Origin: Phycisphaerae bacterium
Lineage (GTDB): Bacteria > Planctomycetota > Phycisphaerae > UBA1845 > Fen-1342
Direction: 5' to 3'
Assembly (NCBI GenBank): GCA_963675745.2
Contig: CAXXWX010000015.1
Coordinates: 384,001-448,000, forward strand
Length of the DNA: 64,000 nucleotides
Below, in pieces: positions 12,394 through 16,491 of this stretch. Each line of letters starts with the position of its first letter. Position 1 is the first letter of the stretch. A program made the position numbers and the translations under genes. A model generated the notes under the pieces. It saw only the letters and a program-made list of their open reading frames with translations. It ran no database searches and was not told the DNA's origin.

Positions 12394-12520
12394 AACATCC
12401 TCCAACATGCAAACCCACAGTATAAACGATCGGCACGCAGAATGGGCCCCGTCGAGTCGCTGACAGCCAGCGCGCCAAGTCGTACAATCGCGACAAGCTG
12501 ACACATTTGCGAGTGCTAAC

Positions 12521-14554
12521 GTGCTACTGAGCGCCTGGTCGATCCTCTGCGAGTCCGCACCGTTTATTCTGGCGGGGTTCTTCATCGCCGGTCTGCTCGA
12601 CGCACTGTTGTCAGCTCGGCGACTGGCCGGATGGCTGGGCGAGTCCGGGACACGCTCGGTAATCCGCGCAACGCTCGTCGGGGCGCCGCTGCCGCTGTGC
12701 TCTTGCAGTGTATTGCCGGCGGCGGTGACGATGCGCAAAAAAGGCGCCAGCCGCGGAGCCACACTCTCCTTTCTGGTGTCCACGCCGGAAACCAGCGTCA
12801 CTTCGCTGCTGCTCACTTACGCGCTGCTGGGGCCGGCGCTGGCGGTAATCAGACCGATCGCGGCACTGGTCACGGCAATCACGGCCGGACTGGTCGAGAA
12901 CTTCGTCGAAGCACGCTGCGCTGAGAAACCAGGCGCGGTTGGCGATGGCCCCGCTTCGGAGGATGGACAGTCCGACGAAGATGCTGCGGCTGCTCCCGAC
13001 GCGACACTCCCGCTGGGGGCGCGACTGCGCGCCGGCATGCACAACGCCTTCGTCAGCTTGTTTGATGACATCTTCATATGGGTGTTGCTGGGGATATTGG
13101 TGGCGGCGGGTATCCAGGCCTGGCTGCCGCCGGAGTTGCTGAATCGCATACTGGGCGGCGAACTGCGTTCCATGCTGGTGATGGTCCTGATCGCCGTGCC
13201 GCTGTACGTGTGCAATGAAGCATCGACGCCGATCGCCGCCGTCTTCATGCTCCAGGGGGTGAGCCCCGGGGCGGCGCTCGTTTTCCTCTTGTGTGGACCG
13301 GCAACCAATATCGGCTCGCTGGGTGTGTTGTATCGCCTGCTCGGCCGGCGCGCGGTGATTGTGTACCTGGCGTCAATCATCATCGTCTCGGTGCTGGGCG
13401 GCCTGGCCGTCAACATGCTGTTGAGCCGACCCGAGATCGGCCTGCAACCGCGCGTGCTCGACGAGCCGCTAACTCCCGCATGGATCAAGGTTGTCGGCGC
13501 CCTGGTGTTCCTGGCGCTGGGTGTGATGACCATCAGGCGAGCCCGATACGCCACCCGGCTGGCTGCCTGGCTCGAGGCCCGTCTGCCGGTACCGGTGTCA
13601 CCCGGCGTGGTGCACATTGCCATGTGGCTGCTGGTCATCGGCGGCTACTTCTGCTCCGGCTTCGGCATCGTGCGCGCCGGCGAGATCGGCATCCAACAGC
13701 GCTTCGGAAAGATCATCCGCGCCGATCTGTCACCCGGACTGCACTACACGCTGCCCTACCCCATCGACACGCTGGATCGCGTGGCGGTGCAACTGGTACG
13801 CCGCACGATCGTCGGGATTGAATACGACGAGAGCGGAGCCGTTGTCGACACGGACCCGCGCGAGGCATGGATCCTGATCGGTGACGAGAACATCGCGGAT
13901 ATCCAGGCCGCCATCCACTGGGGGGCCAGGGCCGATCAGCTCACTCTCTTCGAATACGGCGTGACCGACCGGGAGCAGCTTGTGCGCGACGTGGTTCAGG
14001 CGGCCATGCGCGAGGTGCTTTCCGGCGCATCGATTGAAACCCTGTTCACCGCGAGCCGGCGACAGCACGAGTCGCAGGTCGAGCAGCTCACCCAGAGTCG
14101 GCTGGATGCGTACCAGAGCGGGATCCGCGTACACGCCTTTCACATTCTGTATGCCCACTCGCCACCCGATGTTCACGAGGCTTTTCGCGATGTGGCCAGC
14201 GCTTTGGAGGACCGGGCGACACAGGTCAACCAGGCGCGGGCGCAGGAAGCGCAACTAATCCCGCTGGCGCGCGGGGAGGCCGACTGGATGTTGCGAGAAG
14301 CCGAAGCCTATGCCGCTCTGACAGTCAGCCGGGCTCGTGGCGACGCGGAGCGGTTCACGGCTTTGCAGCGTGTCTACCACGAGTGGCCGCACGTGACCGC
14401 GAAGCGTCTGGAGTACGAGACGATCGAGAAAGTCTTGCCGGACATACGAAAGTACCTCATTCCACCGCGACCGGCGTCTGATGAAATCGAGATCTGGTTC
14501 CTCGATGACGCCGCCAGGAAGCGGACGCCCTTGTGGGCACCGGAGGATCAGTGA
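12521..14554 (+). CDS. DUF318/SO_0444-type permease fused to a C-terminal HflK-like SPFH domain
   Basis: N-half PLPLCSCSVLP, FLVSTPET, PLYVC..ASTPIAA, GPATN with many TM segments; C-half GIQQRFGK..PGLHYTLPYPID, GDENIADI, PPDVHEAFRDV, ARGDAERF. Confidence 0.85.
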   Translation: MLLSAWSILCESAPFILAGFFIAGLLDALLSARRLAGWLGESGTRSVIRATLVGAPLPLCSCSVLPAAVTMRKKGASRGATLSFLVSTPETSVTSLLLTYALLGPALAVIRPIAALVTAITAGLVENFVEARCAEKPGAVGDGPASEDGQSDEDAAAAPDATLPLGARLRAGMHNAFVSLFDDIFIWVLLGILVAAGIQAWLPPELLNRILGGELRSMLVMVLIAVPLYVCNEASTPIAAVFMLQGVSPGAALVFLLCGPATNIGSLGVLYRLLGRRAVIVYLASIIIVSVLGGLAVNMLLSRPEIGLQPRVLDEPLTPAWIKVVGALVFLALGVMTIRRARYATRLAAWLEARLPVPVSPGVVHIAMWLLVIGGYFCSGFGIVRAGEIGIQQRFGKIIRADLSPGLHYTLPYPIDTLDRVAVQLVRRTIVGIEYDESGAVVDTDPREAWILIGDENIADIQAAIHWGARADQLTLFEYGVTDREQLVRDVVQAAMREVLSGASIETLFTASRRQHESQVEQLTQSRLDAYQSGIRVHAFHILYAHSPPDVHEAFRDVASALEDRATQVNQARAQEAQLIPLARGEADWMLREAEAYAALTVSRARGDAERFTALQRVYHEWPHVTAKRLEYETIEKVLPDIRKYLIPPRPASDEIEIWFLDDAARKRTPLWAPEDQ

Positions 14555-14585
14555 GCTCCGCTGAAACGCGAAGCGGGATAACGCC

Positions 14586-15539
14586 ATGCGAACAACCGTT
14601 ACACTCCTGATTGTGGCCGCACTCCTGGCGCTGGTGTGCTCGTGCTTTTTCATCGTCGATGAAACCGAGTTTGTCATCCAGTTGCGCTTCGGCGACCCGG
14701 TGAACACGCGCACCGAGCCGGGCCTGTACGTCAAGTGGCCTTGGCCGATCGACCTGCTCGCGCGCTTCGACAACCGGCTGATGGTGCTCGAAAACCCCGC
14801 GCCCGGCGAGGCGGACAAGGAATACCTGACACAGGATGAGGAATCCGGCATCGGCAAGAACGTCGTGGTGACAACCTACACCTGCTGGAGAATCAAACCC
14901 GATCCAAACGCCGCGCTGCTCTTTCTCAAAACCATGCGCGATATCCCCAGTGCCGAGGCACGGCTTGGCGACATAGTTGTCGCGGAACTGGGCGTCGCGC
15001 TCGGTGAGCATGACTTCTCGGTGCTGGTAACCACCGACGAATCGCAGCACCGCTGGGCGCAGTTTCTCGAGGATGTGCGCGCCAAGTGCGCGGCACGCGT
15101 GAAAGACGCGTACGGTATCGAGGTGCTTGATATCAAGATCCAGCGTCTGAACTTCCCAGACCAGAATCGGCGCAACGTGTTTGATCGCATGCGCGCCGAA
15201 CGCGAGACCATCGCGACGCGCTATCGCTCCGAAGGCATGGAGCAGGCCACGCGCGTTCGGGCCCAGGCCAATCGCCAGCGCGAGGAACTGCTCGCGCAGG
15301 CCATCGAGGAGAGGGAGCGCATCCGCGGCGACGCCGACGCCGAAGCCGCCCGGACTTACGCCGAGGCGTACGGCCAAGACCCGGACTTCTACGATTTCAT
15401 GCGCACGTTGGAAGCCTACGAAACCACGCTCAAGGAGAACACCGTCGCGGTCTTGTCGGGAAGCAGTGATTTCCTGCGCCTGCTGAATAGGCCCCCGCGC
15501 TCATTGTCGCCGACGACCCAACCGTCGACCGAGGAATAG
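14586..15539 (+). CDS. hflC: HflC-like SPFH protein
   Basis: FIVDETEFVIQLRFG, PGLYVKWP, VFDRMRAERE, RSEG, GDADAEA, DPDFYDFMRTLEAY. Confidence 0.9.
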   Translation: MRTTVTLLIVAALLALVCSCFFIVDETEFVIQLRFGDPVNTRTEPGLYVKWPWPIDLLARFDNRLMVLENPAPGEADKEYLTQDEESGIGKNVVVTTYTCWRIKPDPNAALLFLKTMRDIPSAEARLGDIVVAELGVALGEHDFSVLVTTDESQHRWAQFLEDVRAKCAARVKDAYGIEVLDIKIQRLNFPDQNRRNVFDRMRAERETIATRYRSEGMEQATRVRAQANRQREELLAQAIEERERIRGDADAEAARTYAEAYGQDPDFYDFMRTLEAYETTLKENTVAVLSGSSDFLRLLNRPPRSLSPTTQPSTEE

Positions 15540-15546
15540 GCACACC

Positions 15547-16491
15547 ATGCCAAGGGCACGCACCTGGACCATCCTGGCGGCCGCCATCGCGCTGCTCGCC
15601 TACGCCGCCTCCGGCTTCTATTTCGTGGAGTCGAACGAGCGCGGCGTGGTGCGTTGGTTTGGGCGGGTCTACGAGTCGGGTCGCAAAGTCCAGCCGGGAC
15701 TGCACTACGCCGCGCCCTGGCCGATCTGCCAGGTCGATACACCCAAGACCACCGAGGTGCGCCGCGTGTATGTCAGCCTGCTGCCCGCGCAGCGCGAGGC
15801 GATAGCGCGCGGTGAGATTGAGTCGATCGAGGCCAGCCCGGCGAGCGACGTGCTTTCAGGAGACGTCAACATCCTGAAGGTGACCATGGTCGTGCAGTAC
15901 CAGGTGATTGAGCCGGCGGCGTACCTGTTCAATACCAAAGATCCCGACCAGTTGGTGCGCGATGCCGTGCAGGCGATTCTGATCGAGGAACTCGCCGGCA
16001 TACCCGTCGATGAGGCCCTGACCTCCGCCAAGGCCCGCCTCCAACTGATCACACAACGACGCGCGCAAGAGACGCTCGACCGCTATGGCTGTGGCGTGCA
16101 GTTGGTCGCCGCCAACCTGGAATCGATCCAGCCGCCCCGCGCGATCATCGCGGCGTTCCAGGACGTCGTCAGTGCCAAGAAGGACGGCGAAAAGTCGGTT
16201 GACAGCGCCGTGGCCGAGGCCAGTCGCGTCGTTTCGCGCGCGCGGGGTGAGGCCGCCAGAATCCACGAGGAGGCCCTCGCCTATGCCAGCACCCGGCTGA
16301 GCAGGGCGCGCGGCGAAACCGCGCGTTTTCTCAGCATTCTGGCGGAGTATCGCCGTCAACCCGAGGTGTACGAGCGGCGTCTCATGTTGCAGACGTTTGA
16401 GAGCATCCTGCCCGATATGCGGATCTACATCCTGGACCACCAGGAGGGTGATCCGCCGACCCGGGTGCGCATCGTCGATTCACCGGAATAG
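15547..16491 (+). CDS. hflK: HflK-like SPFH protein
   Basis: ERGVVRWFG, PGLHYAAPWPI, LSGDVNI, QPP..AFQDVVSA, ARGETARF. Confidence 0.88.
   Translation: MPRARTWTILAAAIALLAYAASGFYFVESNERGVVRWFGRVYESGRKVQPGLHYAAPWPICQVDTPKTTEVRRVYVSLLPAQREAIARGEIESIEASPASDVLSGDVNILKVTMVVQYQVIEPAAYLFNTKDPDQLVRDAVQAILIEELAGIPVDEALTSAKARLQLITQRRAQETLDRYGCGVQLVAANLESIQPPRAIIAAFQDVVSAKKDGEKSVDSAVAEASRVVSRARGEAARIHEEALAYASTRLSRARGETARFLSILAEYRRQPEVYERRLMLQTFESILPDMRIYILDHQEGDPPTRVRIVDSPE

Follow-up and report, generated by a model that had tools for sequence, protein, structure and literature searches.

A permease–HflK fusion heads a three-gene SPFH operon

We analysed a 64,000-nucleotide stretch (the window) of a Phycisphaerae bacterium genome (assembly GCA_963675745.2, contig CAXXWX010000015.1, positions 384,001–448,000), in which an initial annotation made from the letters alone had pointed to an open reading frame (ORF) joining a DUF318/SO_0444-type permease to an HflK-like SPFH domain, with hflC and then another hflK downstream. 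The fused HflK-like subunit is here called K1, the HflC-like subunit C and the second HflK K2 (Table 1). Re-reading of the ORFs reproduced the coordinates and lengths, as well as the gaps of 31 bp between the fusion and C and 7 bp between C and K2, and the motifs PLPLCSCS, PLYVC and GPATN are all present in the fusion. A Pfam scan likewise found both halves of the proposed fusion, ArsP_1 (DUF318) at residues 7–298 (E 3.8e-45) and Band_7 at residues 383–575 (E 5.2e-14), with Band_7 occurring also in C and K2. Against family models, the fusion passed that for SO_0444 (NF033936; 355.5 bits, cut-off 300) and, marginally, that for hflK (TIGR01933; 160.7, cut-off 159.4), on which K2 scored 194.4, and C passed that for hflC (TIGR01932; 173.5, cut-off 134.4); all three failed the stricter enterobacterial models PRK10930 and PRK11029 (98.8 and 153.2 vs 660; 159.9 vs 427).

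Table 1. Features of the operon and its upstream region (window coordinates).
Feature	Position	Strand	Description
Fusion ORF	12521–14554	+	GTG start, 677 aa; ArsP_1/DUF318 permease and HflK-like K1
SO_0444/DUF318 (ArsP_1) permease domain of the fusion	12521–13543	+	Residues 1–341; from Pfam, NCBIfam and model
Short basic linker with amphipathic helix	13544–13600	+	About residues 342–360; probably cytoplasmic
K1, HflK-like: membrane anchor, SPFH1/2, coiled coil	13601–14554	+	Residues 361–677; probably periplasmic
HflC-like subunit (C)	14586–15539	+	317 aa; transporter-triad clade
K2, free HflK-like subunit	15547–16491	+	314 aa
Sigma70-like promoter match	12460–12488	+	CTGACA-17-TACAAT; in the gap that separates the operon from a divergent sulfatase gene

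The fusion and its gene order are conserved

Leaving the query aside, 118 of the remaining 119 proteins in the set of best 120 matches (37–58% identity) have both Pfam domains (119/120 with the query included); the named close matches are Phycisphaerae. The pair of domains is also present in 114 of 135 additional clusters (50% identity). Contigs of two runs, from a single sample that may be the window's own source, span the fusion junction without differences or indels. The read-through artefact that the initial annotation had named as a possible undoing is thus ruled out by fused homologues, clusters and junction-spanning contigs: the fusion is real and old. GC content at third codon positions (GC3) is alike in its two halves (0.78 and 0.79), and recent transfer of the operon was rejected, GC and GC3 being without a shift.

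Among the GTDB loci, we examined the best 80 of 576 confirmed ones, 34 fused and 46 unfused. The K1–C–K2 order found in the window recurred in all 33 fused loci with downstream DNA (two of these having a frame error and one a K2 cut by a contig end), whereas C and K2 follow in one of the 46 unfused loci. Hosts of fused loci belong to Planctomycetota, Pseudomonadota, Binatota, Acidobacteriota, Gemmatimonadota, Zixiibacteriota and Eisenbacteria, with Bradyrhizobium australiense WSM 1791 (L040) as a cultured, non-pathogenic host. The module is accessory and patchy, being carried by 8 of 40 relatives and by one of three within the genus. One locus (L039:7974-11189) has permease, K1 and C in a single 1071-aa frame and differs from the close L036 at the junction, which removes the K1 stop; this is probably an assembly error, and frame errors are present in the L039 and L044 assemblies.

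Phylogeny of the triad subunits

In a quick tree that set the module against housekeeping HflKC, as the initial annotation had proposed, HflC from triads with a permease, a CDF or a P1B-ATPase on K1 groups into one clade, with canonical HflC and dyads outside it (SH-like approximate likelihood ratio test, SH-aLRT, 99). A more careful tree of the K proteins, built with the long-branch TMx, TMp and L144 rows removed, places the 19 permease-fused K1 in a single clade (100/98) and K2 in one group at weak support (74/94); it supports the separation of K from canonical subunits weakly. K1, C and K2 fall into matching sub-groups, and K2 with C looks like the core of the cage. Six Pseudomonadota loci (L036, L039, L040, L049, L050 and L102) carry an extra HflC-like gene together with an acetamidase/formamidase-family gene ~2 kb upstream of the fusion, and three of these extra C proteins, when placed in the tree, are nested in the triad clade.

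Other transporters occupy the slot fused to K1

The initial annotation had asked whether other transporters are found in the fused position, and two kinds were: P1B-ATPase::K1 (L138 and L139, both Pfam-confirmed; L167, L174) and CDF::K1 (L104, L142, L143 and L144, all four Pfam-confirmed; L161), each heading triads of the same K1–C–K2 order. The search for longer K2 relatives yielded seven proteins, and further cargo types may be missed. The CDF::K1 triads L104, L142 and L143 are flanked by PPIase (Rotamase) genes and by a heavy-metal P-type ATPase or HMA-domain gene, and the conjugative plasmid carrying L104 also has PCu(A)C and SCO genes. An unfused SPFH set beside a transporter was also seen, namely a plasmid-borne Vibrio hflK–hflC dyad (L106:7824-11193) overlapping an nhaA antiporter gene.

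Nor is the window operon the only such locus in its genome, which has a second, divergent K–C–K triad (L015:8561-13335; G000:C10 about 163.5–168.3 kb) between ABC-2-type permease and ATPase genes. Triads like L015 are common in the class (L145–L149, L156, L157), often with a P1B-ATPase. The K1 membrane domain of this type matched the CDF-like domain of L144 (hhalign E 1.3e-5, probability 81%) and, weakly, a four-sequence CDF profile (E 6e-4, 29%), and the K1 membrane domain of Burkholderia and Rhizobium triads is linked to it at E 5e-5. A direct CDF match of the Burkholderia/Rhizobium domain was sought and not found (E 0.079). With moderate confidence, these profile links suggest that both are decayed CDF domains.

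Permease residues and predicted fold

The key residues of the permease are C60-S-C62, E90, C231 and N263. Since the cysteines and E90 are retained (C60, C62 and E90 in 118 of 120 fused permeases, the other two being alignment gaps, and C231 in all 120), the fused permeases do not look decayed. Two residues are of fused type, D182 (119/120 fused vs 4/30 unfused) and E233 (103/120 vs 2/30). In eight unfused deltaproteobacterial permeases (L061, L073, L074, L076, L078, L079, L080 and L097), an in-frame TGA stands at the first Cys of CSC (the C60 codon), a position at which it was seen in none of the fused loci; USC is reported as a known selenoprotein form of the SO_0444 family (10.1101/2022.07.06.499078).

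AlphaFold modelled the whole fusion with a predicted local distance difference test score (pLDDT) of 84.9 and a predicted template modelling score (pTM) of 0.65, and the permease alone with 87.9 and 0.86. The permease model is built of a twice-repeated broken-helix/hairpin unit whose breaks hold the CSC and YVC motifs, and its best 13 structural matches are all ArsB, Pho90, INDY/DASS, TRAP, YdaH or CNT transporters (Z 8.3–13.3), the next row falling to Z 5.8. The top match was 8r33 (Z 13.3, root mean square deviation 5.8, 267 aligned), and ArsB 10tp gave Z 12.4 at 5.7 with 270 aligned. For helical bundles, Z values around 13 are borderline; with that reservation, the model suggests an ion-transporter (ArsB/DASS/TRAP-like) fold across the whole membrane domain, of a kind that we take to be elevator-type. 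Foldseek with the whole fusion model gave, among the matches listed, SPFH proteins only.

The linker, a K1-specific histidine and a K1–C model

The linker between permease and K1 anchor has equal length in 114 of 120 homologues and a mean of 6.4 Lys/Arg; it is therefore probably cytoplasmic, which would put the SPFH part in the periplasm, as for HflK. The K1 profile matches E. coli HflK along its full length (PDB 7vhq_E; E 2.5e-55). At the hinge before the K1 coiled coil are H546 and H552, both invariant in 120 close homologues. The hinge histidine (H546) is present in 29 of 31 K1 of all fusion types, in none of 32 K2 and in none of eight dyad or canonical HflK; K2 also lacks the long cytoplasmic N-terminus. 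Some distant K1 (P0211, P0223, P0236) have long inserts within the SPFH region, which in P0211 and P0223 are His-rich and recall ZnuA loops.

The initial annotation had also proposed structure prediction of mixed oligomers. A model of K1 with C scored 0.67 against 0.00 for the best control; of 157 solved complexes 116 attain this mark, as do 2 of 215 mismatched pairs. Runs of the model agreed in at least 91% of contacts with partner pLDDT of at least 77; H546 and H552 are absent from the contacts with C listed for it. The model thus passes its controls, but speaks for likeness to the solved HflK/C pair rather than for binding, and that likeness may itself be what carries it past the controls.

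Zinc genes near fused loci

Within 8 kb, 14 of the 33 fused loci and none of the 46 unfused ones have a ZIP, ZnuA or ABC-3 gene, counts obtained with neighbourhood profiles seeded from the fused loci and from hosts that are related rather than independent, which tells against reading too much into them. One unfused locus has a P1B gene nearby. At ten zinc-gene junctions that were checked, the genes are on the same strand with gaps of −4 to 36 bp, and a COG0523/CobW gene lies upstream in L141. There is no P1B gene near the window operon, and inspection of 15 upstream regions by eye, the Zur profile not having been run, revealed no shared palindrome resembling a Zur box.

FtsH in the class

That no ftsH lies in the window, as the initial annotation had remarked, is correct, and none was found in this 91%-complete assembly; an AAA-ATPase match over two frames at G000:C4:7829-8507 (L019) is by this criterion not ftsH, the genome having no M41 protease domain. 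The absence is probably an assembly gap. It carries no information, since 149 of 150 class relatives have ftsH, including the triad carriers G074 and G102, and on the same count we rejected 'a cage without FtsH' as an argument. HflK above the TIGR01933 cut-off is present in 22 of 151 class genomes, and the genome studied here has no dyad.

Surroundings of the operon

The operon stands alone, with a divergent sulfatase gene on one side and a convergent PKD-like-domain gene on the other. The promoter match of Table 1 is within chance (one found, 0.5 ± 0.8 expected), and no terminator was found after K2. Adjoining the operon are four sulfatase-like genes in a row (window:5175-12816), two with C-terminal TPR-like repeats recognized by eye; the Pfam scan of this row covered the nearest gene.

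Relation to known systems

HflK and HflC are reported to form a 24-subunit alternating ring (PMC12048511). The window module resembles the E. coli HflK/HflC–FtsH cage (PDB 7vhp, 7vhq, 7wi3, 9cz2, 9paw) in its homologous K and C, predicted fold and predicted K–C interface, and its K and C subunits share 29–32% identity with Salmonella HflK/HflC. It differs in that three subunits replace the two of the housekeeping hflK–hflC unit, with one of them fused to a transporter, in the missing hfq–hflX context and long Gly-rich N-terminus of K2, and in being accessory and patchy with an HflC clade of its own.

Closer in design is the P. aeruginosa PA2439–PA2437 (PaFlo5-6-7)/hmtA cluster, which likewise has three SPFH genes and a metal transporter in one operon, with a link to zinc, and whose gene order of long K, C and K is also that of the window operon. 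PA2439 is presumably the long membrane-fused K. We compared this cluster by literature and used look-alike sequences from Burkholderia, Paraburkholderia and Rhizobium, in which a long K, C, K and a P-type ATPase follow one another and the hinge histidine is present. There, however, the P1B-ATPase has a gene to itself, and the first subunit bears another membrane domain, weakly tied to CDF via intermediate profiles and on long branches outside the window clade; the window permease profile gave no match to these domains (hhalign E 0.2–0.35). Zinc depletion is reported to induce the P. aeruginosa cluster, whose HmtA is a P-type ATPase, 9–14-fold (PMC4542158) and to raise it at the protein level (PMC11761036), and the cluster is described as Zur-bound, yet with hmtA mRNA not zinc-repressed there (PMC8531726).

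The permease belongs with the SO_0444 Cu/Zn efflux family (NF033936; ArsP_1/DUF318; related SaoE and ArsP), scoring above its cut-off and having its CSC and YxC motifs. SO_0444 itself is described as stand-alone under a ZntR-like regulator (PMC3219624), whereas the window permease is fused to K1, and fused permeases differ further by D182 and E233 and by often adjoining uptake genes. Human stomatin, whose dome is reported to enclose AQP1 and UT-B (PMC12407830; PDB 9zd2), is likewise an oligomer of SPFH subunits whose client is a transport protein and not a protease; it is a cytosolic homo-oligomer with non-covalent cargo, whereas the window module would be a periplasmic hetero-oligomer with covalent cargo.

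Our literature searches, with subscription journals and supplements outside their scope, found no paper on a permease::HflK fusion, some of which the supplements of PMC13086221 and PMC2636767 could list; the accessible text of the 2009 SPFH survey (PMC2636767) has no mention of 'ATPase' and one, unrelated, of 'fusion'. Thus, the part families, SPFH cages around transport proteins and a related P. aeruginosa triad are known, and the covalent transporter–K1 design is apparently unstudied.

Discussion

On balance, we favour a transporter-tethered SPFH cage for zinc homeostasis, built as a mixed ring of C, K1 and K2. The accessory three-gene module would make a separate HflK/C-type ring, lying at the periplasmic side of the inner membrane, in which HflC would alternate with two kinds of K, the free K2 and the K1 that bears a thiol-lined secondary metal transporter. 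K1, carrying the transporter on its short rigid linker, would be a cargo adaptor whose slot is taken by a CDF or a P1B-ATPase in related modules, and K2, as a spacer, would occupy the other K positions, so that the bulky transporter sits on some only. Such a ring may fence the transporter into a membrane patch, as stomatin does with AQP1 and UT-B, and the fenced transporter may aid zinc (or copper) homeostasis, with shortage somewhat likelier than excess. We base this proposal on the fusion, its gene order and distribution, the exchange of cargo in the slot, the zinc-gene neighbourhoods and the K1-specific histidine, and on the modelled folds and K1–C contact; topology, mixed ring, spacer role, enclosure, metal and direction are our reading of these. 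Of the dedicated cage put forward in the initial annotation, what has stood is a conserved HflK/C-type set of three subunits with a separate HflC clade and a tie to metal transporters; its assembly, its enclosure of the transporter and a regulated turnover are putative.

Several observations weigh against this proposal. Unfused permeases nest among fused ones in the permease tree, with at least six changes forced by well-supported branches (the tree is unrooted, its unfused rows were picked by closeness to the query, and the 'Us' rows may be fragments), and fused permeases were accordingly not found there as a single clade. In a close relative (L034:8001-11034) the order is permease–hflC–hflK and the K1 domain is gone. 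As unfused permeases are so nested and L034 has lost K1, neither cage nor tether is essential for transport, and the cage is an add-on. Because K1 of the permease fusions is one clade, one fusion followed by repeated loss appears the simplest reading, with recombination possible. K1 of different fusion types did not resolve as one clade, and a single origin of all K1 fusions was likewise not resolved (two changes; 7% of bootstrap trees with one). The K1–C model left out K2, and in distant clusters (n=114, five of the proteins truncated) H546 is kept in 102 and H552 in 76. No zinc gene or regulator lies beside the window operon, and a zinc-gene neighbour is absent at the Phycisphaerae loci L024–L029, L031, L033 and L054. 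Finally, deletion of the P. aeruginosa triad is reported to give mild phenotypes, in a paper whose main text leaves the ATPase unmentioned and among whose visible assays metal stress does not figure (PMC13086221). L034 itself would be a natural K1 deletion, usable as a control, or a mis-assembly.

The direction of transport appears mixed, as neighbourhoods hold importers and exporters: SO_0444 is reported to be required when Zn or Cu is in excess (PMC3219624), and two of the operons contain CDF exporters, both points that weigh against the proposal, and a DUF318 gene of S. loihica is reported to be needed under zinc (10.1101/072470). The export to which the initial annotation linked DUF318 permeases is nonetheless not favoured, the neighbourhoods being mostly of zinc-uptake genes, and for the family as a whole we lean slightly towards zinc shortage.

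A bolder version holds that K1 is a general cargo adaptor of SPFH cages for metal transporters of three unrelated folds, that the hinge histidine is a periplasmic zinc site and that the dome is an FtsH-independent, metal-gated antechamber collecting or releasing ions over the tethered transporter; taken whole, we hold it as tentative and rather unlikely. It is also unlikely, in our judgement, that the triad is a specialised FtsH adaptor recruiting the cell's single FtsH to set the lifetime of the tethered transporter, by protection or by removal as metal status shifts. Both K1 and K2 are genuine homologues of HflK, and FtsH is near-universal in a class where HflK is rare, leaving it no other obvious HflKC partner in this dyad-less genome. 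Moreover, K1 keeps the arginine of the E. coli 'VRELA' strand, which on our reading is HflK beta4, the element that FtsH K61/D62/S63 are reported to contact (10.64898/2026.10.12.758600); the FtsH-contact Arg191 named in PMC12048511 is Ala in the compared PDB sequence, where Arg141 fits. However, no ftsH was recognized among the recurring neighbours of fused loci (by clustering, with no dedicated search), triad C falls outside the canonical HflC clade, most Phycisphaerae have FtsH without canonical HflKC, and tethered permeases would occupy membrane area that FtsH needs.

Doubtful, too, is the alternative that the SPFH part is a scaffold that helps mobile, cysteine-rich transporters to fold or keeps them stable, or else an elevator stator; the permease would then sit at the ring's rim or beyond it, and the dome would have no metal role. 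The fixed linker length, the sharing of the slot by three unrelated transporter folds, the PPIase genes flanking CDF triads and the existence of unfused permeases fit it, as do the TRAP transporters among the fold matches; TRAP transporters use an extra scaffold subunit. Left unexplained by it are the histidine confined to K1 across all cargo types, the His-rich, putatively periplasmic inserts of P0211 and P0223, and why every recognised cargo belongs to a metal-transporter family. An incidental or artefactual fusion of functionally unlinked permease and SPFH genes, for which the unfused, K1-less L034 and the frame errors in two assemblies might be invoked, is barely credible given the fused homologues and clusters, the single permease-fused K1 clade and the equal GC3 of the two halves.

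The role of bacterial SPFH cages towards clients other than FtsH is hard to study, the cargo being loosely bound and difficult to identify. In the modules described here, the cargo has become covalently joined to a cage subunit, and this in three metal-transporter families, so that in the transporter–K1 pair the effect of a cage on its transporter becomes directly testable. The tethered-cage proposal may also offer a hypothesis for the function of the P. aeruginosa PaFlo5-6-7 operon.

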